This document shows, piece after piece, positions 3,344 through 20,918 of a DNA stretch of 32,000 nucleotides (positions are counted from its first letter, which is position 1; every line of letters begins with the position of its first letter). Below the pieces are notes generated by a model. It made no database searches. It saw only the letters and a list, made by a program, of their open reading frames with translations, and was not told where the DNA came from. The DNA lies in assembly GCA_003144275.1 (NCBI GenBank), contig NJBF01000028.1, forward strand, positions 1 through 32,000, read 5' to 3'. The DNA is from Candidatus Heimdallarchaeota archaeon B3_Heim. Lineage in GTDB: Archaea > Asgardarchaeota > Heimdallarchaeia > Hodarchaeales > Hodarchaeaceae. The translations under genes and the position numbers were made by a program.

Positions 3344-5608
3344 TTGGATCAGTTTCTCCTTTTTCTAAATGATTTTCATGAGCAAATAAAGCCTCTCGCA
3401 ATCAGGCCTAAGAAGCAGAATCCGAGGTCAGAATCGCGAATGGTCGATGTGCCAAAAGTCTTTTATTTTAAGCATATCCCATTAAACGTCGATAAAAAAA
3501 GTATCAAGGTCTTCCTCCACTCCAAAGATACTTTTTCATTGGAATACAGTATTTTTGAACCGAAAACGGTGCATGTGACTATGGCGCCTGTCTGTGGCCG
3601 TTGGTTTCGGCAAAAAAAGACCGACCGAGCCTTGGCCTCCATTCAGCAATTTGCCTCCACTATGGGCTTACATTCTGATTTTCATCAATTCAAACCTTCA
3701 CCGATTCATCGGCTCCTGAAAATGTTCCGTCCTTCCTTTCATTTATATGCCGATGATCCCACCAGTCCCAGTTTTTCCTCGGGTGGAATCTTAGCAGTTA
3801 CAGGGGATAAAGCACCGCCTTTGACAAGTGTGGAGAACTTCATTGATGATTTATTAGAAATTCTTACAGATTTTCCGACCTTTGCGTTGGTGCAACTGGT
3901 TTTCAAACCGATAGGTATTCCTCGGAAATTTCGCTTAGATGAGGAAGGCCAAGAGCGGCAAAAAACCCAGCTACGTTTTGATATTCAACAGGGCCAAGTC
4001 CAGCAACGGTTTACCTCGTCGATTAGTACAATTATGGAGGAAGCGGGGTGTTTTCATTTCTCACCGAGGGTGTTGATTGTCGAAACCAATCCTGACACGT
4101 TAAAAACCAAACTCAATCGAATCTCAGCATTATTTCGTTCGCATGGTTTGAAAGTACGGAAATATCCCTCTTTCTGGCGTCGTTTTCGGTCATTTATGGC
4201 TCAATGTCAATCCCATAAACTCGCTTCACCCATTGTATTGGATGGATATTCCCTTATGGGGTTTATTTCTCCTCCCAAACGTCAATTTGCCAGTGTGGGC
4301 TATTCTTTGGTGCCTCATAAAGAGGACTATCTTCTTTCCTCAGGGATCGATCGACATTCGGATCCCTCTGCGATTAATGTCGGGATTCCGATTATTAGTG
4401 GGCGTACTGTTGATGATCCGCTATTGATTCGTGGTCAGGACTTCAATCGGCATATGGCTGTCTTCGGTATGACGGGTGAGGGGAAAAGTCGTTTTATCTA
4501 TGGTCTCATTGCTGAATTTTATCGTCAGCAGGTGAAGTTTGTCATTTTTGATCCCAAAGGGGAATATCTTCATCCTGTGCGGTCATTTTGTCAAGATGTC
4601 ATCTATCTTAAACCGGGTTCGCAGGATCTTCCCTGGGGCATTAACATTTTTCACATTCCTCGGAATGCCTCGGGGGACTTTCTCATTCCTCTCGAAGACC
4701 ATATTCAATTTATCATGTCCCTTCTTGAACATATCTTTGATGAATCAGATGCTTTATCCCCTCAAATGCGTCGCTTATTGCATCTCGCGATTATTCAGAC
4801 TGTCAAGGAACAGGGTGATTTTCGTCGTTTCCTGTACTGGCTTGACAATCCTGGGCAACTCGGCATTAAGGGCAGTTATCTTGAAAATACGGCTGCAGGC
4901 ATTCTTAATCGGATCGAGAAACTTTTCTTTGGGAATACGGGCCGCTGCTTTACTGTCTCGCAGACCACCTTTGAAATTGCCTCGTTACTCGACCAGAATG
5001 CCATTATTGATCTATCTGCCTTTGAAGTCATGGAGGACCGATCGGGGCGACAAATGTTTCTGGAGGTCATCTTTCAGTATCTGTATTATTTTGCCCGAAG
5101 TTTTCGTCCTCCCTTTAAAGAAGAAGGTCTGCCTCAGAATATTTTTATCTTGGATGAAATTCAGAAGATTCTCACTCCCCAGAAATCCCGTTTTAAAGCC
5201 TCTGAGTCGATTATTAGTAAAGGTCCCTGGACCTTACGCTCGTATGATATTTCTATGATTTTCATTGGTACCGATCCTGTCATTGATCAACCCATTCTCA
5301 CCAATATGGGTATTTTTTCCATCTTTTATTCCAAATACGACCCCTATGCCATTGCTACCTTGCTTGGTATTCCCAAAACTGATTACGAACAGCTTCGTAC
5401 GCTCTTGAAGGTCAATCCTGATACACGCAATTGCTTGATCTCGGTCAATGCGCAGCTGTCGTTATTACGGACGAATGAGTTTCCTTTGGACTTATCTGCT
5501 CCTTTTGATCTTTCTGCTCTTCAAGCTCTCCCCCGTCAACGACAACTGCAGGAATCCTACGCAAAGTATGCCTTTGACCCCATTGATGAAATTATTTCAC
5601 AGAACTAA
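3344..5608 (+). CDS. HerA/FtsK/VirB4-superfamily P-loop ATPase (DUF87-like) with an uncharacterised N-terminal region
   Basis: RHMAVFGMTGEGKS (Walker A), VIFDPKGEY, IFILDEIQK (Walker B), LRSY (Arg-finger region). TTG start. Confidence 0.85.
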   Translation: MDQFLLFLNDFHEQIKPLAIRPKKQNPRSESRMVDVPKVFYFKHIPLNVDKKSIKVFLHSKDTFSLEYSIFEPKTVHVTMAPVCGRWFRQKKTDRALASIQQFASTMGLHSDFHQFKPSPIHRLLKMFRPSFHLYADDPTSPSFSSGGILAVTGDKAPPLTSVENFIDDLLEILTDFPTFALVQLVFKPIGIPRKFRLDEEGQERQKTQLRFDIQQGQVQQRFTSSISTIMEEAGCFHFSPRVLIVETNPDTLKTKLNRISALFRSHGLKVRKYPSFWRRFRSFMAQCQSHKLASPIVLDGYSLMGFISPPKRQFASVGYSLVPHKEDYLLSSGIDRHSDPSAINVGIPIISGRTVDDPLLIRGQDFNRHMAVFGMTGEGKSRFIYGLIAEFYRQQVKFVIFDPKGEYLHPVRSFCQDVIYLKPGSQDLPWGINIFHIPRNASGDFLIPLEDHIQFIMSLLEHIFDESDALSPQMRRLLHLAIIQTVKEQGDFRRFLYWLDNPGQLGIKGSYLENTAAGILNRIEKLFFGNTGRCFTVSQTTFEIASLLDQNAIIDLSAFEVMEDRSGRQMFLEVIFQYLYYFARSFRPPFKEEGLPQNIFILDEIQKILTPQKSRFKASESIISKGPWTLRSYDISMIFIGTDPVIDQPILTNMGIFSIFYSKYDPYAIATLLGIPKTDYEQLRTLLKVNPDTRNCLISVNAQLSLLRTNEFPLDLSAPFDLSALQALPRQRQLQESYAKYAFDPIDEIISQN

Positions 5609-5803: not shown

Positions 5804-7222
5804 CTCGAATGATGAGTAAGTCACCATCGGGGAGTAATGACGGAGCTGACCCATAAGCATTTAACTTCTGAGCCAAATGTTTTTCTATGATAGCGAATCA
5901 AGAAATACACTCGTTAGAAAACGGACTCCGTCACTATCCCTCACGGACAGTCCAAGTTTTTAAAACTACCCATCTGACCCGTATTCTCAGAAAACACATT
6001 CACGAGACAGATGCCGACAAAAATCGGAAAGAATTTAGCTGCGAACAGTGGATTAAAGGTCTTTCCTTGATGCAGATTCAGAAATTCGAAGCGGTACGAC
6101 CCTTTGTGCGACAGCTAGAGCAAAATAGATCCTGGCAAGCTATTTGTGGTTATCAAGGAAACGTACCCACTCAAGGACAGTATTCCCGAAAAATTCTTGA
6201 TAAAAGGATTCAGGAGGTGTTAGTACGTACGTTTCAGACCTATCAACACTTAATTCCTTTGACACAAGGGAAATTACCCAATACTCCTTCAAGTGCTCAA
6301 TTTACTCTCCTTCAACAAGGTTATTATCCATTTCGGATAGATTGTACCAGTTTAAAGTTGTCTCCAGATCGGTATCCCTATGTCACATGGGGGTATGTTG
6401 CCAGTAAGAAACAGACCTTCCCTAGTGCGCGAATACACACAGTTCAGGAAGGAATCCACGGATTCATTGCTAATTACGGACCATCGGGAGGTCATGAACA
6501 CGAATCTCCCGTAGCTGAAGTACTATTGAATGAAACCGAAGAAATCAATAGTTGGTTGTCCGCAAATTCCATTATAGATCAACCACGACCATATATAATA
6601 TTTGATCGGGGATACTGGAAATTAGATCGTTTTCAAGATTTAGATACTCGTGGATGGGGGTGGAGTATTCCTTGGAAGAAACGAACTCTAATTGGAGTTC
6701 AAATGGAAATAATAAAGTTTCCTCAAGCTGAGAATAGCCCTTTGGAAATTCTGGTCTGGGGATCAAAAACAGAAAAACCATGGCGTCGTATTATTGGTAA
6801 GCTGGATTCATCCAACGATAGTTTTTGGAACGTACTTACCAATAATTTATCTCTACCTCCCTTAACGGTGCTTCAACTCCAAAAGGAACGCTGGGAGATC
6901 GAAACCTTGTTTCAATGGATTAAACAACACACCACAATTAAACGTCCATTGGGGAAATCTTGGATGAGTTTTGTCACCCATTGCTTGTTAGTAACTTTAT
7001 TACAAATCATCCTCTTTTATTATCTTCTCCTTCTCGGTTTTACTCGTTGGCAAGATCAGTTAACATCATTACTTGAAAATTTACGTTATTCGGACTTGGA
7101 ACCGTGGCCTAACTCTTACTTGATAGCGGAAAGGTTATTTTAAAGGTCAGGTGATAAAAATGTGATGAACTAATCCATTAGACTTAAAAAGGCCAGTGAA
7201 TTGAAGTTACTCATCGATCGAG
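5804..7222 (+). mobile_element. IS4-family insertion sequence (~1.42 kb)
   Basis: A transposase flanked by imperfect 16-bp inverted repeats: CTCGAATGATGAGTAA (5804-5819) and TTACTCATCGATCGAG (7207-7222), 14/16 match. No clear target-site duplication. Confidence 0.75.
5887..7143 (+). CDS. IS4-family DDE transposase
   Basis: RIDCT (D), IFDRGYW (D) and ERWEIETLFQWIKQ (E in the R-W-x-I-E-x2-F-x3-KQ signature); 418 aa, intact. Confidence 0.9.
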   Translation: MIANQEIHSLENGLRHYPSRTVQVFKTTHLTRILRKHIHETDADKNRKEFSCEQWIKGLSLMQIQKFEAVRPFVRQLEQNRSWQAICGYQGNVPTQGQYSRKILDKRIQEVLVRTFQTYQHLIPLTQGKLPNTPSSAQFTLLQQGYYPFRIDCTSLKLSPDRYPYVTWGYVASKKQTFPSARIHTVQEGIHGFIANYGPSGGHEHESPVAEVLLNETEEINSWLSANSIIDQPRPYIIFDRGYWKLDRFQDLDTRGWGWSIPWKKRTLIGVQMEIIKFPQAENSPLEILVWGSKTEKPWRRIIGKLDSSNDSFWNVLTNNLSLPPLTVLQLQKERWEIETLFQWIKQHTTIKRPLGKSWMSFVTHCLLVTLLQIILFYYLLLLGFTRWQDQLTSLLENLRYSDLEPWPNSYLIAERLF

Positions 7223-7417
7223 TTTTATATTATTTTTTTATGATATAAAATAACAATTTATTAGCTTGTTAGAAGAAAATGACAATTTATGGTTCCATTT
7301 CACTCAATTAGGTCACTCATTTTTTAAAAATGTCTTTAGGATCTCCTGAAAAAGAAGAGTAATCTTAAAAAGTTATTAATTCGGGAAACTTTTCTATAAC
7401 AACTAGGAGTAAGTTCT

Positions 7418-8821
7418 TTGTTATTTATTATCGATCAGAATGGTGTATCGCATACCATTCCTTTAGTAGATTTTCACACCCATATTGGGCGAGTAAAGAT
7501 AGCTACGACAAAAGGCTCTTCACAACGAATTAATCAACCTCAGGATATCTTGAATCTATACGCAAAACTACAGTATGAGTTAGTTGAAAGAATAAATAAG
7601 AAACCTGATCAATATTGGGTAACTCTCCCCAAGGTTGAAGAATTTGCCCAGCCACTCTTCCCATCAGTAAAAACCATATATTCTGTGAACGAAACAAAAA
7701 CAAGAGGCTGGTTAGTAGATAAAATTGTGACTTTTCCTTTCAATGACATCTTTCACACTCAAACACAGCCAAAATTCATTAAAAGTAATCGTTATGTTCG
7801 TCATCAAGTTCATACCTTCGATAATTGTTTTCGATTTACCCCGTTTTGTCGTGTTGATCCCACTGATTCTGAATCAGACCAAGAAGTCTTAGATTCTATT
7901 GAACAAGGAATGAATGGCCTTAAATTACATCCTCTTTCTCAGGGCTGGATTAAGGATATAGTATCTCCTGAAACAAAACAAATCTTGAATGAAGCAGGAG
8001 ATTTGAGGATTCCAGTTATATTCGATGTACCTAATAAAGGAGTTGCCGCTGATATTACAGAAATTACACAGGAAGCAAGAAATGAACAAGAAAATCCAGT
8101 TAATGTTGTATTGGGACATTCTGGATTTGATTATGATTCACCAGAAATTTTCGAATGTCTTGCTGAAGATGGAATGTATGCTGAAACTAGTGGTATGAGA
8201 GGTAAAGATGTAGAAATTTTCTTTGATAATTTAATTAAGTTAGTTCCTAACTGGGAGAATAAAATTGTCTTTGGAACCGATCACAATTATTTCAGCGTGC
8301 TTCAAGCTGCTGATATAATTACCTATTTATTCTCAAACACTTTTCTTAATCTATTAAATGAACAGGAGCAATCAGTAGATCCTATATGTGCGATTTCAAA
8401 CATTCTAGGGGGGAACGCACTAAATCTTATACCTATTTCTTGGAATACAATGGAGGGAAAAACTAAATCAAGAAAATATAGGATAAAATTAGGTGATTTC
8501 CAGAAAATCATCAAGAAATTCATTTCAAATAAAGGCAAATTTATCAAAATTGATCTGGGGGAGAATGTGAAGAGAAATCAGATTCTACAAATTATAACGT
8601 TCGGTGAGAAGGAAGCACGATTAACTTACTCTCTTCAAGAAATAGCTTCAGGGGAAGAGGTAATTTTAAGATCAATTACCCAAGAAATTCAAAAAGTGGA
8701 ATTCTCGTGTACAATGACTCCTCTACAGATCGAGAAGATCACAAAGCCAACGAGAGGGGATAAAAAGATTAAAGAAGAGAAGTTTAAAGAATTACTATTT
8801 GAGGGAACTTCCCAGGATTGA
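7418..8821 (+). CDS. Amidohydrolase-superfamily metallohydrolase (TIM barrel) with an extra C-terminal domain
   Basis: DFHTHIG (HxH), GLKLHP, VLGHSG and FGTDH metal-ligand motifs. The stop overlaps the next gene's TTG start. Confidence 0.85.
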   Translation: MLFIIDQNGVSHTIPLVDFHTHIGRVKIATTKGSSQRINQPQDILNLYAKLQYELVERINKKPDQYWVTLPKVEEFAQPLFPSVKTIYSVNETKTRGWLVDKIVTFPFNDIFHTQTQPKFIKSNRYVRHQVHTFDNCFRFTPFCRVDPTDSESDQEVLDSIEQGMNGLKLHPLSQGWIKDIVSPETKQILNEAGDLRIPVIFDVPNKGVAADITEITQEARNEQENPVNVVLGHSGFDYDSPEIFECLAEDGMYAETSGMRGKDVEIFFDNLIKLVPNWENKIVFGTDHNYFSVLQAADIITYLFSNTFLNLLNEQEQSVDPICAISNILGGNALNLIPISWNTMEGKTKSRKYRIKLGDFQKIIKKFISNKGKFIKIDLGENVKRNQILQIITFGEKEARLTYSLQEIASGEEVILRSITQEIQKVEFSCTMTPLQIEKITKPTRGDKKIKEEKFKELLFEGTSQD

Positions 8822-11800
8822 GTGATATGGTTTCAGGAAATTATATTATGGAAACACCGTTATTTTTCTCGCACGGTATTGAGATTGAAAACCATCTAGT
8901 TGCAGCTCAAACAGGTGAGGTCTTAGTGGGCAATGATCTTCTATCAACATGGGAAGACATATTTTCTAATGCTTTTGAGTATTTAAAGAAAATTAAAAAA
9001 GATAAAAAGACCCCGAGGATTATAGCAAAGAAAATTGTCAAAATAGAGCTGAAAGAAGAAACTAAACGTGAAAAAAGGCTTAGCTTCATCTTTGTACATT
9101 ATAAGCTTGGGAAAAAGACTATTAAAATAAATGTCTTTGGACCAGATCCGAATATCTCACAAATCACTTGGCTCTTGGAACTAGTAACTCCACCATGTGA
9201 GTATCTTGAAGAATTGTCATTTTGGATAGATACTCTTTACGCTGCAGCTTTACATGGTTTATCAAAAACAAAAACAAAATCTGCCCTTTTACCAATGGGA
9301 TTAAACCCGATGGAACAAAGAGTACGAAGTGGACTCACATGTGGAGAACACCATCATATAGGAATTCCATCTTTTATTCGAGCACCTGTATATAACATGC
9401 TCCGTAACTACATTCCCCACTTAATCGCATTAAGCTCCACTTCACCGTTTTTGAACCAAAATACAAGTAGTAAAGTTATTATTAAAGAAAAAAATGGTAA
9501 AAAACAAGTAATTAGTCGAGGTACTCATTCATTTCGACTGGCTAACAATACAGGTCAAATGGGGCCCAATATACCTCAATATTTGCCCATTATAGAGGAT
9601 ATGACTTCACGAGAAGATTTTGCACGATTAATAAAGAAAGTACCACCCGAAGACCGCATGATAGATCTTTTTCCCTATACAGATTATTCAACTATAGAGC
9701 TTAGGTTCTTTGATGCACAACCTTGGAAAGAAAATCGCTTAGCTATGGTATTACTTATACAGGCACTGGCCCAAAAAACAAAAACACTGATAAAGCAAAA
9801 GAACCCAGTTCCCACTGTATCATCTCAGAGTTTGTATAAAAATCGTCGAAAAGCTATTCAATTTGGTTTACTTGCTCAATTTACCAGAGATGAGACTTTA
9901 ACAGGGGAGTTTGCATGGTTCTACAATTATGATATCGAAAAAGGAGTTAAAGCATCTAAATTAATGCATTCAGTTTTAGCTTTACTAATCTACATCGAAG
10001 ATGAGTTACTTGAATTTAACTCAAACTACATCGACCAAGTCCTCTTACCTGTGTTAGGGTCGAAAAAATTTGCCCCTCCATTTTCTGTATGCGATTACCT
10101 TTTCAAACTCTATGCAGAAAAGAATCAAAAAGTACCTGAGTTTCTTAATGAACTATATTATAGCGAAAAACTTATTTATCCGCCCCAAGTGGCAGGTGAT
10201 TTTTCATCCTTTCTTGTTGAGAATCCTCCTGATTCCTTTTTGGAGGTAAATAAACAACAACAGAATTTAACCCAGCTCCTACAACAAGATATTGCAACTC
10301 GGGAAGTTTTCAAGAGCAGATCTGAATTAAAACCAAAAAAGCAGAAGAAAAAGAAACCTGTGGTAGCTAAAGAGAAAGTCATCAAAGATAAAACGAAAAA
10401 AATTCCTGCTACCACTCCTGAAAAACCTCTAACAAAGAAAAAAGCGCCGACTAAAAAGCAGCGGCCTCCTGAAACCCCAAAACCGAAAAAAATGGTTGAG
10501 GTAAAAACTCCAAGACAAAGAGAGAAAAAGAAACCAACCCCCGAAACAAAACCTATAGCAAAGCGAGAACCTATTCAGGTAATCTCTGCTTTCGATGAAA
10601 ACGAGGATCTGGAAATTTATTCCCCCATGATTGAGATTGAACCAAAATATCAGAAAATTAATTCCAAAATCGCAAATATCATGCGTACACGTCGTCAAGA
10701 AATCGAAGCTAAGCGGGTTGTGTTTTTCCAAGAACATCTGAAAGAGGAAGAGTCCGATTTCAAGCCATTTCCCAAAAAACAAACTGCTGTTTTTCCAGCT
10801 CTAATTTCTGGGCCCGAACTGTTCGGGTATATCGTACTCTCTTTTAGTGACATTAAAAAGGTCATGTACCAATTTCGGAATAATCCTATAACCTTGAAGT
10901 TTTATGATAATCAAACAAACAATATAATTAGTACACTAAGGACTTTTTTGGATATATCTCGAATTGAAAAGCACCAAACGGTACGAATTCCTTGTTCTAT
11001 TGACTTAGGGGAAATATACGGAAAACTAAAAATTCGAGTGGAAGCAATTACTTCAACAAATCATAGATTACTACCTAAGAAATTTGTCTTTGCAGTGGAA
11101 CGAAAAGACCAAATTAGTATTTCACCCAAAGAATTCTATATCACTAGTAATTTTGGAACTGTTGAGTGTGTGTACAAAGCAACTAACGACTCTAAGAAAG
11201 AAGAAAGAGGAGAACTAACGTTACTCTTAGCAACACAGTCGTCATCAACACCTATTGTAATTTATGAAGAAAAATTTAATCTAAAACCTCATGCATCTTT
11301 TGAATTAGCTCGAAGCATAGATTTATCTATAGATTATCAGCATAGCTCCTTTTATATTCTCGCTCGCGTCACAACGGGTCTTCTAAAGAAAAACCGATCT
11401 TTCAAGAGTATTCATGTCCCCGTTCTACGCGAAATTGTTGTTGATTGGTCATTTGTAACACGACCTGGGTCAAAAAATGACTTATGGCAAGGAGTAGAAC
11501 CAAAAACACATTACGCAGTTGATTTTGTTTTTCATTTCCTTCAATCATTGCCTCCTGTTGCCATCTCAATTTATGTCAACACATTTCCCCAAGGAGAAAC
11601 TAAGAAATTAACGTCTTTACGTTTAAAAAGGTACATAGATAAAGGTGATGAGTTTATTGCGCCACCTGTCAAATTTAAAACTCCTAAAAAATGTGGATAC
11701 TTAATCTTTGATGTTCAAATTCGTACAGAAAAGGGCATTCTTCCCATGCACCTAATATCCGAACCAATTGGAGTGTATAGTCTAACAACAAAAACTACTT

Positions 11801-11829
11801 TTGAAAAGAGGCGTGACTTGGATCTTTGA
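8818..11829 (+). CDS. GCS2/YbdK-type carboxylate-amine (glutamate-cysteine ligase family) domain + Lys/Pro-rich linker + beta-rich C-terminal domains
   Basis: SHGIEIENHLV, LLELVTPPC, CGEHHHIG, LIALSSTSPF and TIELRFFD match the GCS2 motifs. Low-complexity K/P/T linker around aa 500-590. The last ~350 aa show an alternating beta-strand pattern. Confidence 0.8.
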   Translation: MSDMVSGNYIMETPLFFSHGIEIENHLVAAQTGEVLVGNDLLSTWEDIFSNAFEYLKKIKKDKKTPRIIAKKIVKIELKEETKREKRLSFIFVHYKLGKKTIKINVFGPDPNISQITWLLELVTPPCEYLEELSFWIDTLYAAALHGLSKTKTKSALLPMGLNPMEQRVRSGLTCGEHHHIGIPSFIRAPVYNMLRNYIPHLIALSSTSPFLNQNTSSKVIIKEKNGKKQVISRGTHSFRLANNTGQMGPNIPQYLPIIEDMTSREDFARLIKKVPPEDRMIDLFPYTDYSTIELRFFDAQPWKENRLAMVLLIQALAQKTKTLIKQKNPVPTVSSQSLYKNRRKAIQFGLLAQFTRDETLTGEFAWFYNYDIEKGVKASKLMHSVLALLIYIEDELLEFNSNYIDQVLLPVLGSKKFAPPFSVCDYLFKLYAEKNQKVPEFLNELYYSEKLIYPPQVAGDFSSFLVENPPDSFLEVNKQQQNLTQLLQQDIATREVFKSRSELKPKKQKKKKPVVAKEKVIKDKTKKIPATTPEKPLTKKKAPTKKQRPPETPKPKKMVEVKTPRQREKKKPTPETKPIAKREPIQVISAFDENEDLEIYSPMIEIEPKYQKINSKIANIMRTRRQEIEAKRVVFFQEHLKEEESDFKPFPKKQTAVFPALISGPELFGYIVLSFSDIKKVMYQFRNNPITLKFYDNQTNNIISTLRTFLDISRIEKHQTVRIPCSIDLGEIYGKLKIRVEAITSTNHRLLPKKFVFAVERKDQISISPKEFYITSNFGTVECVYKATNDSKKEERGELTLLLATQSSSTPIVIYEEKFNLKPHASFELARSIDLSIDYQHSSFYILARVTTGLLKKNRSFKSIHVPVLREIVVDWSFVTRPGSKNDLWQGVEPKTHYAVDFVFHFLQSLPPVAISIYVNTFPQGETKKLTSLRLKRYIDKGDEFIAPPVKFKTPKKCGYLIFDVQIRTEKGILPMHLISEPIGVYSLTTKTTFEKRRDLDL

Positions 11830-11941
11830 ACAAAGATATCTAACATTCTTTTATCTCAAAGGATTTAATTTTTAAAGGGAATAACAATCTAGACTGAAAT
11901 AATAAAGAATAAACTTGACGTTCATACAAGGAGACAATAAG

Positions 11942-13234
11942 ATGACCAAAATATCGTTGAATGTTGTAAATGTAGGTAATATTGAAGGACGAGCGTACCT
12001 CCACACCCAAGATATAGAAAAACTGGCTATAAATGAATTTGATTATGTTAAAATGGTAACAGAATGGGAAGATTGGGGCGCAGTGCAAATTCTTTCTTCA
12101 GATGAAGTGGAACAGGGAACTATTGCTGTAGATGCTAGTGTACTATCATCAGCAAATATTTCCGATGGTGATGCTGTGGAAGTAGAACCGGTTAATAATG
12201 CTGCAGCAGGTATCAAATCAATTAAATTGGGTATAGAACCTCTTGCTGGTCAAGAAGTTGAAGAAGCCATTTTATGGATTGCTACAGAATTTGAACAGCT
12301 TTCTACTCTGCTCAAAAATCGACCTGTGTTCAACAATCTTCAAATTGCCTGGGAAGATTGTCCAATTGGCAATATTACGGTGAGATTCCTTGGAGCTGAT
12401 CCTCCAATTCCAGATGGTGATATAGGGATTGTAGATCCAACAGGTCGTGAAGTGGAGATAAACATAATTCCATTTACCGAAATGAGTTTCAATGCAGTAT
12501 TAGTTCTTGATGTATCAGGAAGTATGTCTAAAAAGGATATGAAGGTCAAAAATATCAGTGGTGCATTGGAAGGACTAAAAAAAGGATTAGATGAGTCAGA
12601 TGAACTTAACTTGTTCATTGAAAAATTCCAAGATGGTAAAAAAGTGTCTAGGGTCGATGCAGCGGCTATGGCTATTATGTTATTTATGTCACTAAAAATT
12701 GCCAAAGGGTGGGGAGAACAAATTCAGTTACTGACATTCTCTGGCGAAGTAGAGAGATATTCACTAGGAGACACAAATGTCATTTCTTGTGTGGGTGAGA
12801 CAAAAAAAGCGGGAATCGAAAGTATTATTGATCATGTTGTCCAAAAGACCTCAGAAAGTACTGGTTTAACATTTCTGAGTGGGGCGTTAGATCAAGCATA
12901 CAAAAGTATTGACAGTTTTGATGAAAACCCTACAATCCAGAAGAAAAATCCAACCATGATTATTGTTCTCACAGATGGAAACCCGAACAAAGGAAATGGA
13001 CTTGGAGTAAACCCCATTCCAATCGTAAAACAATATGTGGAGCAACATCCCGAAGTAGTCCTCTATGCGATCGGATTAGGAGAAGCAGATCGCTTAATGT
13101 TGCGAAAAATTGGTGAAATGGGTCGGGGTGGCTCATTGATGGCAGATGATTTGGAAACTCTGATTGATTTCTATGATTCATTGGCTCAAAACTTCCAGAT
13201 GGTCGTTAAAATGAAGAAAGAACCAGAGGAATAA
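11942..13234 (+). CDS. Cdc48/VAT N-domain (double-psi barrel + CDC48_2-like) fused to a von Willebrand A domain; no AAA module
   Basis: Start reassigned to ATG 11942 (AGGAGA at 11929-11934). GRAYLHTQDIEKLAINEFDYV..GTIAVDASVLSSANISDGDAVEVEP resembles CDC48_N; LKNRPV..VRFLGADP resembles CDC48_2. The VWA has MIDAS DVSGS, T and LTDG, plus LYAIGLG. Confidence 0.8.
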   Translation: MTKISLNVVNVGNIEGRAYLHTQDIEKLAINEFDYVKMVTEWEDWGAVQILSSDEVEQGTIAVDASVLSSANISDGDAVEVEPVNNAAAGIKSIKLGIEPLAGQEVEEAILWIATEFEQLSTLLKNRPVFNNLQIAWEDCPIGNITVRFLGADPPIPDGDIGIVDPTGREVEINIIPFTEMSFNAVLVLDVSGSMSKKDMKVKNISGALEGLKKGLDESDELNLFIEKFQDGKKVSRVDAAAMAIMLFMSLKIAKGWGEQIQLLTFSGEVERYSLGDTNVISCVGETKKAGIESIIDHVVQKTSESTGLTFLSGALDQAYKSIDSFDENPTIQKKNPTMIIVLTDGNPNKGNGLGVNPIPIVKQYVEQHPEVVLYAIGLGEADRLMLRKIGEMGRGGSLMADDLETLIDFYDSLAQNFQMVVKMKKEPEE

Positions 13235-13482
13235 TCCAAACTTCATCCTTTGTACCTTTATATTTGATTCCTACCGTCTATATCCCTTAAAACTACCTTT
13301 AATTGGTTTTTGATTATGGTGACTACTCATCAAGGTATAACTCCATTATGATAAGTCAGAAATCAACCTAAATCCAAAAAAGGTCTCCTGAAAAAAGACT
13401 AAATATTTATACTTAGACGAAGAGTGCATAGTCCCCATCTTGCAAAAGGGGATATCTTGGGAACTAGATCAAAGGTGAATAT

Positions 13483-15006
13483 ATGCCAGAATACAAAGTC
13501 GTAACTTCTAAAATTGACCCAAAAGATGCCGTGATTGTTTCCGCGGAGAATAATCAACATATAGTTACACAAGCGAAATTTGCTTTATCCTTTAAAGGAA
13601 AAGAGGCAAAAGTCGGACAAGTATTCAAATTTAAGTGCTTTTTAGAAGAAAACGAAGTGGGATTATCCCAAGTCATGATGAATAAACTGGGAGTTACAGA
13701 AGGAGAGATGGTGACACTTCAATCAGTGGGTAGAACTATCTCTAAGAGTTTCTCCTTGATTAAGCAACGAATAGCCCAACCTGGAAAAGTATTCACTAAA
13801 AATGAAATAGATCATATTATCAGCGACATCACACTTGATAACATGACCCCGCTTGAGGAGTCTGTATTTTTAACCTCTCAAATGCTTCAAGAGTGGAATA
13901 TTGGAGAAATTGAATGTCTAACTAACGCAATAGCCCATTCTGGACAAATAATCAACTGGGGTGAAACTGTGATCTTTGACAAGCATTCTCTCGGTGGTGT
14001 TCCGGGTAATAAGGTAACTCTTCTAGTTGTTCCTATCATTGCCGCTGCAGGGTTGACAATTCCGAAAACTTCATCACGTGCTATCACCAGCCCTTCTGGT
14101 ACCGCAGATACTATGGAAGCTCTAGGGTGTGACATTGAATTCACCATCGATGAGATGGTAGACATTGCTCAAAATATTGGTGGATTAATTGCTTGGACTG
14201 GTGGTTTGAATATTGTTCCAGCTGATGAAAAGATTATACGTGATGTTCAGTATCCCCTGGGTATCGATCCTGAACCAATGATGATGGCTTCTGTCATTTC
14301 CAAAAAAATCGCGATGGGCGTCAAGTTCCTTGTCTTAGACATTCCATGCGGTTATGGAACTAAAGTGGCTAATTTAGATACTGGCAAACGCCTTGCTCAT
14401 CGATTTTCTGAATTAGGACGTCTAGTCGGAATTCGTATCGAAAGTGGTATAACCTACGGGAGCTCACCTGTTGGTAATGCTGTTGGTCCTGCATTAGAGG
14501 CTAGAGAGGCTCTACTTAGTTTAAAAAAACCTTTAGAGGCTCCTCATTCTTTAGTTGGAAAAAGTACCTCCTTAGCGGGTATTCTACTTGAGATGGCTGG
14601 GAAAGCAATTACAGGTACAGGTCAAGAATTAGCGTATGAGATTTTAAATTCGGGTAACGCGTATAAAAAGTTCCAAGAAATCTTAGAGGCTCAGAACGCT
14701 GATCCACTCTTAAAACCTTCAGATATAGAAATTGGATCTGCTACCTATGAATATTTGGCACCTCAAAGTGGTTATGTTGTTGAAATTGATAACAAAGTCA
14801 TAGGTCGAGCTGCACGTGCTGCAGGCGCGCCAATGGATAAGCGAGCCGGAGTTTATTTCCATAAAAAGAAGGATTCTGTTAAACGAGGTGAAACCTTGTT
14901 TACATTATATTCATCTAATGAGAAAAAGCTAGCAGCAGCAGAAGCTGAATTAGTAAAAGGTGATTTACCAGTTACTATTGAAGGAATGCTTCTCGCACGT
15001 GAATGA
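13483..15006 (+). CDS. deoA: AMP phosphorylase (archaeal thymidine phosphorylase family)
   Basis: DKHSLGGVPGNK, IPKTSSRAITSPSGTADTME, ASVISKKIAMG and GAPMDKRAGV motifs; 507 aa. Confidence 0.93.
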   Translation: MPEYKVVTSKIDPKDAVIVSAENNQHIVTQAKFALSFKGKEAKVGQVFKFKCFLEENEVGLSQVMMNKLGVTEGEMVTLQSVGRTISKSFSLIKQRIAQPGKVFTKNEIDHIISDITLDNMTPLEESVFLTSQMLQEWNIGEIECLTNAIAHSGQIINWGETVIFDKHSLGGVPGNKVTLLVVPIIAAAGLTIPKTSSRAITSPSGTADTMEALGCDIEFTIDEMVDIAQNIGGLIAWTGGLNIVPADEKIIRDVQYPLGIDPEPMMMASVISKKIAMGVKFLVLDIPCGYGTKVANLDTGKRLAHRFSELGRLVGIRIESGITYGSSPVGNAVGPALEAREALLSLKKPLEAPHSLVGKSTSLAGILLEMAGKAITGTGQELAYEILNSGNAYKKFQEILEAQNADPLLKPSDIEIGSATYEYLAPQSGYVVEIDNKVIGRAARAAGAPMDKRAGVYFHKKKDSVKRGETLFTLYSSNEKKLAAAEAELVKGDLPVTIEGMLLARE

Positions 15007-15467
15007 CGAAATTTAAGATAATGAAACCGTCAACTAATCTTCCTCTTGGCATATTAATTCAATTTGTTGAGTATTGCAACGCGATCAGGGAACCAGTTGT
15101 TCTTATCGTTGAAGGAAAACGAGATATTGAAGCATTAGAAGCTATTGGAATCAAGCTAATTAACGGAAAAATTTTGGCTAGAAAGGGTTTGTCTCTGAGC
15201 AAACTTGCAGATCAAATTTATCCTGTTTCAATAATCATACTTCTTCTGGACTTTGATAAGGAGGGGAAGCATATGCGAAGTGATTTGAAGAAGGAACTCC
15301 AAAAACGTAAAGGTCACGGGCTTATTGATCCTTACCCTAGACAATTATTGTATAAATTTTTCCGTGCAGCGAGAATCAATGAAATTGAAGAGGTAAAACA
15401 GTTTAGTTCAATTATTCCAAAAATAGAAGATACATTTAAGAATACGAATACTCACTATTCCAAATGA
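15003..15467 (+). CDS. Small TOPRIM-domain protein (archaeal UPF0292/RNase M5-like)
   Basis: LIVEGKRDIEAL and LLDFDKEG TOPRIM motifs; ATGA overlap with the AMP phosphorylase gene. Confidence 0.85.
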   Translation: MTKFKIMKPSTNLPLGILIQFVEYCNAIREPVVLIVEGKRDIEALEAIGIKLINGKILARKGLSLSKLADQIYPVSIIILLLDFDKEGKHMRSDLKKELQKRKGHGLIDPYPRQLLYKFFRAARINEIEEVKQFSSIIPKIEDTFKNTNTHYSK

Positions 15468-15516
15468 AAAATAGATATCTACCTCTCCTTTTGTCCACTT
15501 AATATCGGAGTTTACC

Positions 15517-16380
15517 TTGATGGAGAAAATGTGTCATAAATCACATTTATTAGACGAACAATTGTTTCTCCCCAAGCGTACCACAATTGCCAGCTTTCCT
15601 GGAGGTAAAAGTGATAAGAAAAAACATCTTCCACTTTATTTGTCCATTCCTAAACATATAGAATATTTTGTTGAACCATTTGCTGGCTTAGCCAATGTTT
15701 TCATTGCCTTATCTCCCCGAATTTCGCGAGTATGGTTAAATGATAAAGATCCAGAAATATTTTCATTGCTAAGCTGTATGCAGGATTCAACTTTATTACA
15801 ACAACTCATAGAATCCATAAAATCGTTAGAGCCAGTCACAAGGGATGATTACTATCACTGGAAACAATTTAATCCCTCCAAAACATTGGATCGTGCAATA
15901 AGAAGATTGGTAATTCTCAATTGCTCTCCAAATGGAGCTGGAGGTGGATATAGCCATGAGAAAGCCCATCGAAAATGGTATCAGAATAAACCAAAAATGT
16001 GGAGTAAGATTCATCAGATATTTGAAAATAAAAAGGTACGAATCACTAATTTTGATTATGAAAAGGTTTTAGCTTCGCTCTCTCCAGATGATGACTTAAT
16101 AGATTATTTTCTTTATTTGGATCCCCCATATTATGATGTTGCACAAAAAGGCTCATTATATGGGAAAAATTATAATCAAATTGATATAAATAAGTTGAAA
16201 GATCTCCTAACATCTTTACCGATTCATTGGCTTTTATCAAATAGAGATACTTCTGTTATCAGAAAAATCTTTCGTCAATTCTCCACATTAGGTTATAATA
16301 CATATAACGATATGAACAATACTCAGAAGGGTAATCCTGAGCTCCTCATTAGCAACAATCCCTTATTTGAGGAAAGATGA
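15517..16380 (+). CDS. Dam/D12-class N6-adenine DNA methyltransferase, orphan
   Basis: FPGGK, FVEPFAG, LNDKD and YLDPPYY motifs. No nuclease gene is adjacent. Confidence 0.9.
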   Translation: MMEKMCHKSHLLDEQLFLPKRTTIASFPGGKSDKKKHLPLYLSIPKHIEYFVEPFAGLANVFIALSPRISRVWLNDKDPEIFSLLSCMQDSTLLQQLIESIKSLEPVTRDDYYHWKQFNPSKTLDRAIRRLVILNCSPNGAGGGYSHEKAHRKWYQNKPKMWSKIHQIFENKKVRITNFDYEKVLASLSPDDDLIDYFLYLDPPYYDVAQKGSLYGKNYNQIDINKLKDLLTSLPIHWLLSNRDTSVIRKIFRQFSTLGYNTYNDMNNTQKGNPELLISNNPLFEER

Positions 16381-20197: not shown

Positions 20198-20390
20198 CCG
20201 TTCTGAAAGACTTACCCAAAGAGGACCGCTAGGAATAATTGGGAAAAACTATTCGTAACTATCATTGGAGCTGTTCTTCCTGATTCAGCGACGCGAGCCG
20301 GCATTAATGCAGGTCTTACCGCCTCTCCACAGGCGTTTAATGTCTCCGCAGAACTCTCGGCGACAGGAAAGACACATGACTTTCCTGATT
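20198..20390 (-). ncRNA. Putative TnpB omegaRNA/reRNA scaffold (right end of the element); boundaries approximate
   Basis: GC-rich stretch ...AACGCCTGTGGAGAGGCGGTAAGACC...GCGTCGCTGAATCAGGAAG..., typical of tnpB 3' ends that overlap the omegaRNA. It abuts the right junction. Confidence 0.55.
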
Positions 20391-20601
20391 GATTAGTAGC
20401 TTTTCTTCTTATAAACCTATTAAGCCCTGTAATCTAAAACAAATTTGCTTGTTTCCCGTTATTCTAATATCAAGAAGTTACTCAGCGCGTCATTTTAGGT
20501 ATAATCCCATGAGATCGGTTGAACACGCTGTTAATCATGTTTATTAATCTCTACTCCCTTCTCCTAAGATATCCTGCCTTCTATTTCTCTTCATTCCGTA
20601 A

Positions 20602-20642
20602 TGTCATCTTGTCCTAGTTGTCTATAAATGTCCATATCTGTC
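20602..20642 (-). repeat. Five phased GACA direct repeats in the left end of the IS607-like element
   Basis: TGTC on the + strand at 20602, 20610, 20619, 20629 and 20639 (8-10 bp spacing). This is consistent with the repeated TnpA-binding motifs described for IS607-family left ends. Confidence 0.7.
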
Positions 20643-20918
20643 AACCTATCCAACAACAGTATTGACCCTCACTGAGCTTTGCTGAATAAGTAACCATGGT
20701 TACAAATAATGCATCAAAGTTGGAAGGTTCTACAAGCACTTCTTTTAAATAGAAAGCAATGACGAAAACATTAAGGATATTCGCCATAATAGAGCTGCCA
20801 AAATTACCAAAAGCCCATGGGAAACCCTGAAAACGTCGTGGTCTATATTCTGTAGCAGCCATTTTTAGTTCACCAGTTTTACGATAGAGTAAATATGTGT
20901 TTTACTCGTTTAAGTTAA

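Follow-up and report, generated by a model that had tools for sequence, protein, structure and literature searches.

A ligase, a metal hydrolase and a Cdc48N-VWA protein form a conserved three-gene unit of Asgard archaea with a possible role in reversible protein modification

Contig NJBF01000028.1 of Candidatus Heimdallarchaeota archaeon B3_Heim (assembly GCA_003144275.1) carries, within the 32,000-nucleotide stretch analyzed here (positions 1 to 32,000; the window), three consecutive genes encoding a hydrolase of the Amidohydro_2 type, a ligase of the YbdK/GCS2 type, and a protein that joins a domain like the N-terminal domain of Cdc48 (Cdc48N) to a von Willebrand factor A (VWA) domain. These three genes, hereafter the trio, are one functional unit that occurs almost only in Asgard archaea, where they are linked, co-inherited, and co-duplicated, and where the catalytic residues of both enzymes and the metal ion-dependent adhesion site (MIDAS) of the VWA domain are intact. 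As to its function, a reversible amide-type modification at the protein level, with the VWA protein as the bound partner of the hydrolase, is put forward tentatively and at somewhat less than an even chance. An original prediction, made from the DNA letters, had described three co-oriented genes as a possible tagging module with an adaptor; their positions and shared strand are as it gave them:

7418..8821, forward strand: hydrolase gene, Amidohydro_2-type mononuclear-metal TIM-barrel enzyme, 467 amino acids (open reading frame and translation)
8818..11829, forward strand: ligase gene, YbdK/GCS2-type carboxylate-amine ligase, 1003 amino acids counted from the TTG at 8818
11830..11941, no strand: spacer between the ligase and VWA genes, 112 nucleotides, AT-rich (sequence)
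11942-13234, forward strand: VWA gene, Cdc48N-like-VWA protein, 430 amino acids (open reading frame and translation)

Conservation of the gene neighborhood across Asgard archaea, which the original prediction had proposed as a check, was borne out. Among 301 Asgard genomes (thresholds of 1e-20 for the ligase and the hydrolase and 1e-60 for the VWA protein), genomes with the ligase numbered 174, those with the hydrolase 172, and those with the VWA protein 161; all three were confined to the same 10 of 30 families, each in 34 of 70 genera, and the remaining 20 families contained none of the three genes (e.g., 0/29, 0/19, and 0/11). Linkage survived rearrangement into at least five gene orders: hydrolase, ligase, VWA in the genus of the window; hydrolase then ligase, with a divergent VWA gene ∼7 kb away, in Heimdall-type genomes; in families f10, f12, and f23, hydrolase then VWA, with the ligase convergent to them; ligase, a gap of ∼8 kb, and then VWA and hydrolase in Thor-type genomes; and ligase then hydrolase in families f14 and f27. 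Two complete paralogous trios, each separately co-localized, are present in the Frey and Jord families. For 27 loci, maximum-likelihood trees of each of the three proteins recovered the same major clades (supports 90 to 100, mostly 99-100), with Hod, Heimdall, and Frey/Jord trio 1 grouping together in all three trees and Frey/Jord trio 2 forming a separate clade; the trio has therefore been duplicated and inherited as a set. That the genes are chance neighbors with unrelated functions would fit the 112-nucleotide spacer and the separate transcription units of some lineages, and nothing else; set against the identical family-level phyletic patterns, linkage through so many orders, paired duplications, and trees with shared major clades, this explanation is excluded for practical purposes.

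Open reading frames (ORFs) of at least 60 amino acids from 94 loci, with flanks of up to 8 kb (10 kb in some), were clustered into families. Only two partners recurred across the 10 ligase clades, the VWA protein in 9 of them and the hydrolase in 8; those short recurrent ORFs that were checked were opposite-strand shadows inside the trio genes themselves. No Cdc48, PAN, or proteasome gene recurred within 8 kb of the trio at these loci, and none of the three proteins gave a PADLOC defense-system match. Heimdall- and Frey-type loci have genes for Ras/Arf-type small GTPases next to or in between the trio genes (L013, 3729-5003; L017, 4476-5498; L014, 7561-8106), joined in the Heimdall-type loci by a small helix-turn-helix gene; this GTPase neighborhood is lineage-specific, with no recurrence across ligase clades.

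A scan of one genome per species (185,579 species) yielded 107 relatives, the best 80 of which all came from Asgard-labeled records or from a few metagenome-assembled genomes (MAGs) labeled Bathyarchaeia, Thermoproteota, or Thermoplasmata (labels as recorded). A 115-kb contig labeled as an uncultured Thermoplasmata MAG carries a long-branch trio in the order VWA, ligase, and then hydrolase (L107, 4787-14131); going by that label as recorded, the trio may not be strictly limited to Asgard archaea.

Judged from its sequence and its model, the 1003-residue protein is an ATP-dependent ligase joining a carboxylate to an amine. Its parts are as follows:

8833..10239, forward strand: GCS2 catalytic domain, residues 6-474 (PF04107, YbdK NCBIfam models, PDB profile, fold, and invariant residues)
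10240..10665, forward strand: disordered basic arm rich in Lys, Pro, and Glu, residues 475-616 (∼140 residues; model and composition)
10666..11787, forward strand: helix (617-644) followed by three Ig/macroglobulin-like beta-sandwich domains (650-990; model, predicted local distance difference test, pLDDT, ∼90)

The ligase scored 28.1 bits against PF04107 (cut-off 21), with a single-sequence alignment confined to residues 169-213, and a profile built from 62 ligase homologs matched YbdK (1r8g) at E 6e-10 in a PDB profile search, which also identified 1tt4. The original prediction had the ligase keeping the GCS2 catalytic motifs alongside a long extra region, and both parts hold: in the alignment of the 62 homologs, the GhExE motif (G20, E22, E24) and H178, H180, E294, and R296 are invariant or at least 90% conserved, and ∼530 residues lie beyond the catalytic domain. 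The GhExE motif is part of the Mg/ATP site common to GCS2 and the Pup ligase PafA (Iyer and co-workers, PMC2588565). In the AlphaFold model (mean pLDDT 82), the catalytic domain was matched by Foldseek to 1tt4 and 1r8g at E 4e-12 to 9e-12, with a template modeling (TM) score by target of 0.74, and to the plant glutamate-cysteine ligase 2gwc with a TM score by target of 0.54; within the arm, pLDDT falls below 50 over residues 475-484, 500-586, and 595-616. Foldseek matches to the C-terminal part were macroglobulin arrays of complement and alpha-2-macroglobulin and transglutaminase beta-barrels, and a language-model look-up of the same part returned only generic CARDB/Ig-like leads.

Fold and catalytic motifs are thus common to residues 6-474 and the YbdK/GCS2 ligases (PF04107; E. 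coli YbdK 1r8g, Salmonella 1tt4, plant 2gwc). Unlike these enzymes, however, the trio ligase scores 59 bits where the equivalog cut-offs are 176 or more: the NCBIfam identity of glutamate-cysteine ligase was not reached (best 59.2 bits against a cut-off of 176.4), and the other YbdK-family NCBIfam models gave 27-56 bits against cut-offs of 332-437. It differs further in its disordered basic arm and three Ig-like domains, and in the obligatory linkage of its gene to those of the hydrolase and the VWA protein. A short ligase of 570-600 amino acids, lacking the Ig-like domains, occurs in families f14 and f27, where a conserved ORF of 600-649 amino acids precedes it (L031, 1341-5120; L032, 4548-12131). 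A split ligase was considered for these two families and rejected, the hhalign probability between this ORF and the ligase C-terminal region being 0.2; the ORF gave no informative Pfam match.

The hydrolase of the window had no Pfam match at E 0.01 or better; more distant orthologs carry PF04909 (Amidohydro_2). Three residues (H171, H234, and D288) are invariant across 46 hydrolase sequences, with H20 and H22 conserved in at least 90%; this set corresponds to the single-metal Amidohydro_2 pattern. The model (pLDDT 92, predicted TM score 0.91) comprises a barrel (residues 1-345) elaborated by an N-terminal hairpin and helix, and an extra alpha/beta domain (353-467). The barrel, which Foldseek matched to Amidohydro_2 structures, superposes on them (4dlf, 3cjp, 2dvu, 4i6k, ACMSD, and IDCase) with Z 20-22 and a root mean square deviation of 2.5-3.3 Å over 226-259 residues. 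The same barrel and His-x-His/His/His/Asp set are found throughout the compared PF04909 members, namely ACMSD (2hbv), gamma-resorcylate decarboxylase (2dvu), a LigI-type lactonase (4i6k), a COG3618 lactonase (4dlf), IDCase (4hk5), and LigW (4l6d); the trio hydrolase differs from them in the extra N-terminal hairpin and helix, in a C-terminal domain of 115 residues, and in the predicted protein cap over its active-site face. An exhaustive profile search recovered 73 cluster representatives of the hydrolase at E 1e-30 or better, beyond which scores dropped to far weaker and mostly shorter proteins of about 245-300 amino acids. The nearest relatives outside the trio are uncharacterized archaeal proteins of ∼245 amino acids that give no pointer to a substrate; among ten relatives looked up, the single named small protein was a generic "amidohydrolase family protein" of Methanopyrus kandleri. 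A language-model look-up of the hydrolase C-terminal domain gave nothing usable.

The third protein consists of two domains:

11942..12481, forward strand: Cdc48N-like domain, residues 1-180, a double-psi barrel and second lobe with the conserved acidic loop E41-D44
12482..13234, forward strand: VWA domain, its MIDAS intact, ending in a short acidic tail (Pfam VWA/VWA_2 above cut-off; invariant residues)

The window protein (P0003) scored 28.3 bits against CDC48_N (PF02359), under the cut-off of 35.1, and all 29 aligned orthologs matched both CDC48_N (best E 9e-11) and VWA. The MIDAS ligands D190, S192, S194, T310, and D345 are invariant among these 29 orthologs and are retained in the most divergent paralogs, and the acidic loop comprises E41, E/D43, and an invariant D44. 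This is the best conserved member of the trio, with 41-48% identity between Asgard classes against ∼30-40% for both enzymes. The double-psi-barrel N domain is shared with Cdc48 and VAT, and the intact MIDAS VWA fold with proteins such as Rpn10 and the partners of MoxR ATPases. In contrast to Cdc48 and VAT, however, the VWA protein has no AAA domain (residues 181-420 are VWA) and no AAA+ ring, no AAA+ gene is linked to it, and its N domain is predicted to bind an enzyme; the ubiquitin-interacting motif of Rpn10 likewise has no counterpart. A language-model look-up of the protein returned VWA clusters only. In family f27, the VWA protein is 764 amino acids long, with three Cdc48N-like barrels and a Pro-rich linker. 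A transfer of domains between the partners was rejected for this protein, its N-terminal extension of 350 residues being made of the extra Cdc48N-like barrels and the Pro-rich linker and not of the ligase Ig-like region. The gene directly downstream of the VWA gene in the window encodes an AMP phosphorylase (13483-15006), and the N-terminal domain of the VWA protein (11942-12260) weakly matches the archaeal AMP phosphorylase N-terminal domain (TIGR03327 positions 4-105, E 1e-4; PDB 4ga5, E 0.29); both N domains may be Cdc48N-like barrels.

Another candidate reading is that the Cdc48N-VWA protein is mainly a signaling scaffold, in which case it would be related in fold to the N-terminal half of eukaryotic DEPDC5/Iml1 and the two enzymes would be its metabolite sensors or effectors. 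DEPDC5 has been described as an NSF/Cdc48-N-like N-terminal domain followed by a Sec23-trunk-like SABA domain (PMC8534245), and in Heimdall-type loci small GTPase genes stand between the VWA gene and the enzyme genes. However, GTPase neighbors are limited to some lineages, and a sequence-level link of the VWA protein to DEPDC5/Iml1 was sought and not found: the IML1 model (PF12257) gave only two sub-threshold matches elsewhere in the source genome and none on the VWA gene, and a PDB profile search with the VWA protein, taken up to E 10, returned no chain of DEPDC5 or Iml1. Such a scaffold is very doubtful.

Co-folding predicted that the hydrolase binds the VWA protein as a tight heterodimer (ipSAE, an interface score from predicted aligned errors, of 0.83, 0.82, and 0.82, versus 0.00 for the best of three controls). 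Of 80 solved complexes, 58 reach the 0.82 mark, as do 2 of 110 mismatched pairs; these counts hold only roughly for a model made from our own alignments. The runs agree in at least 85% of contacts, with a partner pLDDT of 88. On the hydrolase, the predicted interface comprises residues 24-25, 111-112, 173, 205-209, 239-240, 261-264, and 293-295 together with the N-terminal hairpin and helix; apart from the latter, these are the loops after most barrel strands (following residues 22, 107, 171, 203, 234, 256, and 288), so the VWA protein would cover the catalytic face. On the VWA protein, the interface is formed by Cdc48N-like loops (42-43, 69-76, 100-103, and 131-146), of which 42-43 belong to the conserved acidic loop, and by parts of the VWA domain (208-215, 250-256, and 284-286); the MIDAS residues lie outside it. 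Such a cap would fit a bound substrate, a substrate-presenting subunit, or a gate.

A paralogous Cdc48N-VWA subfamily, 36-38% identical and with the same two domains, carries in addition a C-terminal ubiquitin-like (UBL) domain terminating, like ubiquitin precursors, either in Gly or in Gly-Gly plus a few residues. On one Hodarchaeota and one Lokiarchaeota contig (L024, 4362-11764; L114, 1076-7366), the genes for these paralogs adjoin ubiquitin, ThiF E1, UQ_con E2, and JAB genes, and a gene of 366-379 amino acids with a weak RING-like match lies nearby. In one subfamily, the Cdc48N-VWA module thus goes with a known protein writer/eraser set, and in the other with the ligase/hydrolase pair; by analogy, this is the best argument that the trio acts on proteins. 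The window VWA protein has no C-terminal ubiquitin-like domain, and no Cdc48N-VWA-UBL paralog was found in the source genome with this protein as query. Directly upstream of the Cdc48N-VWA-UBL genes lies a gene encoding 292 to 372 amino acids (370-372 in three of four loci); this ORF of ∼370 amino acids was considered as a hydrolase homolog and rejected, being a coiled-coil protein.

The original prediction had seen the VWA protein as an adaptor: the ligase would tag clients, the amidohydrolase would reverse the tagging, and the Cdc48N-VWA protein would hand clients to Cdc48, PAN, or the proteasome. The co-conservation of the trio, the ubiquitin-linked paralogs, and a free MIDAS that could read a carboxylate are all in keeping with such a role. 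However, in the predicted complex the VWA protein pairs with the hydrolase itself and is no free adaptor, the N domain of Cdc48 normally binds Cdc48 cofactors and not Cdc48, and the model is weakened because none of the three proposed recipients is encoded recurrently near the trio. We consider the adaptor role quite improbable.

The reading preferred here, of a reversible modification at the protein level, is favored because of the predicted hydrolase-VWA complex and the ubiquitin-linked VWA paralogs. We infer that the ligase would write an amide-linked group on a protein and that the hydrolase would remove it, the two enzymes opposing each other, with both domains of the VWA protein clamping the catalytic face of the barrel in a predicted heterodimer that leaves the MIDAS free. 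The Cdc48N-VWA protein may be the modified protein itself, via its conserved acidic loop or its acidic tail, or alternatively a subunit by which the modified substrate is presented to the hydrolase.

Several points weigh against this reading. The complex is a model, and conservation of its interface is barely above average (0.61 vs. 0.54, p 0.09; 0.60 vs. 0.56, p 0.26). The acidic C-terminal tail of the VWA protein is absent in Loki and Sigyn orthologs, and no fourth gene or small tag ORF recurs near the trio in the 94 loci. YbdK-type ligases of known activity make small molecules. The nearest solved relatives of the hydrolase are lactonases (4dlf, 4i6k) and non-oxidative decarboxylases (2dvu, LigW, ACMSD, IDCase), beside some uncharacterized members; none is an amidase, and the name "amidohydrolase" therefore says little about the bond cleaved. 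The protein-level module of the original prediction is favored by the predicted complex and the paralogs and opposed by the known chemistry of the hydrolase's solved relatives.

An alternative reading is a small-molecule pathway, in which the ligase makes a gamma-glutamyl-type or similar amide, the Amidohydro_2 enzyme hydrolyzes, decarboxylates, or delactonizes an intermediate, and the VWA protein gates or scaffolds the hydrolase. The characterized YbdK/GCS2 members and all the nearest solved Amidohydro_2 structures act on small molecules, the hydrolase metal site is intact, a cap over the catalytic face also fits an inhibitor or gate, and a tag gene is missing from the loci. However, such an enzyme pair has no obvious need for a very strongly conserved and co-duplicating MIDAS partner, nor for Ig-like arrays on a disordered arm; the partner fold is tied to ubiquitin conjugation genes in its paralogs, and no further pathway genes recur nearby. 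On balance, a small-molecule pathway is somewhat unlikely, yet it is the alternative to be taken most seriously.

The preferred protein-level reading has a precedent in pupylation (PafA, Dop, and Pup of Actinobacteria), in which a hydrolase opposes a GCS2-related ATP-dependent ligase of the same superfamily; proteins can thus be substrates of GCS2-like ligases, as the example of PafA shows (PMC2588565). In the trio, however, the hydrolase is an Amidohydro_2 TIM barrel with no homology to the ligase, whereas Dop is homologous to its ligase; moreover, no small disordered tag gene and no proteasome ATPase is linked to the trio in the 94 loci, where the constant third member is instead the 430-residue Cdc48N-VWA protein.

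The archaeal ubiquitin-like operons that contain the Cdc48N-VWA-UBL genes share the Cdc48N-VWA architecture beside a writer and a metallo-eraser; however, the writer there is E1/E2, the eraser is JAB, and the VWA protein has its own UBL domain and a coiled-coil neighbor. In parallel to this set, the trio might constitute a protein conjugation or amidation system of Asgard archaea's own, in which the GCS2-type ligase would attach, and the TIM-barrel hydrolase detach, an amide link involving the Cdc48N-VWA protein as a modified carrier or large tag, via its acidic loop or tail; in this specific form, the proposal is unlikely.

A modified carrier is also known from the LysW/LysX/LysK system, in which a ligase couples a compound to an acidic carrier protein, at a Glu side chain, and a metal hydrolase frees the compound. 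The trio may work alike: where the hydrolase is predicted to contact it, the VWA protein carries the conserved acidic loop E-x-E/D-D-W. The LysW system, however, uses ATP-grasp and M20 enzymes and a small zinc-ribbon carrier modified at its C-terminal Glu; the trio enzymes belong to other families, and no biosynthetic genes accompany them.

Within the window, the hydrolase gene starts at a TTG preceded, 8 nucleotides upstream, by AGGAG (7405-7409), and the VWA gene starts at an ATG with AGGAG likewise 8 nucleotides upstream. The TTGA overlap of the hydrolase and ligase ORFs is present as described originally (TTG 8818-8820, TGA 8819-8821); however, the true ligase start is probably the in-frame ATG at 8827, because close ligase homologs begin at the matching position, which would leave a gap of 5 nucleotides after the hydrolase stop and thus tight coupling and no overlap. 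The caveat that the VWA gene may be transcribed separately is probably right: an own promoter in the 112-nucleotide spacer is probable because most other lineages have these two genes, ligase and VWA, in convergent orientation and because the spacer of a sister genome (G013, L034) tolerates an insertion of 470 nucleotides, at the equivalent of 11875-11879. The VWA gene of that genome is intact, and its product is 98% identical to the window VWA protein. The insert (L034, 7390-7860) is 93% identical to window positions 20198-20668, which indicates that this element of ∼470 nucleotides is mobile within the genus.

The trio is flanked by an IS4-family transposase gene upstream (5887-7143) and by the AMP phosphorylase gene downstream. 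DNA identity between the window and the sister-genome locus is 93-95% over 8849 to 16000, but 70% over the hydrolase gene (7466-8337), and the hydrolase proteins are 57% identical, compared with 94% for the ligases and 98% for the VWA proteins; this drop points to a recombination breakpoint near the hydrolase/ligase junction, adjoining the transposase gene. Upstream of the transposase gene, positions 3344-5608 encode a HerA/FtsK/VirB4-like ATPase of 754 amino acids (DUF87; weak CedD and TraD matches), which may belong to a region that is mobile or serves DNA transfer.

No known archaea are more closely related to eukaryotes than the Asgard archaea, whose protein-handling systems (ubiquitin, ESCRT, and small GTPases) are studied as forerunners of eukaryotic ones. 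The trio, in which an amide ligase is combined with a metal hydrolase and a Cdc48N-VWA binding protein, is a widely kept three-gene unit of which no published description was found in full-text literature searches. If a metabolite is made or sensed, the Cdc48 N domain would have gained a new use, that of capping an enzyme; if the protein-level reading is true, the unit would represent a third chemistry of reversible protein marking, beside ubiquitin-type and Pup-type tagging.

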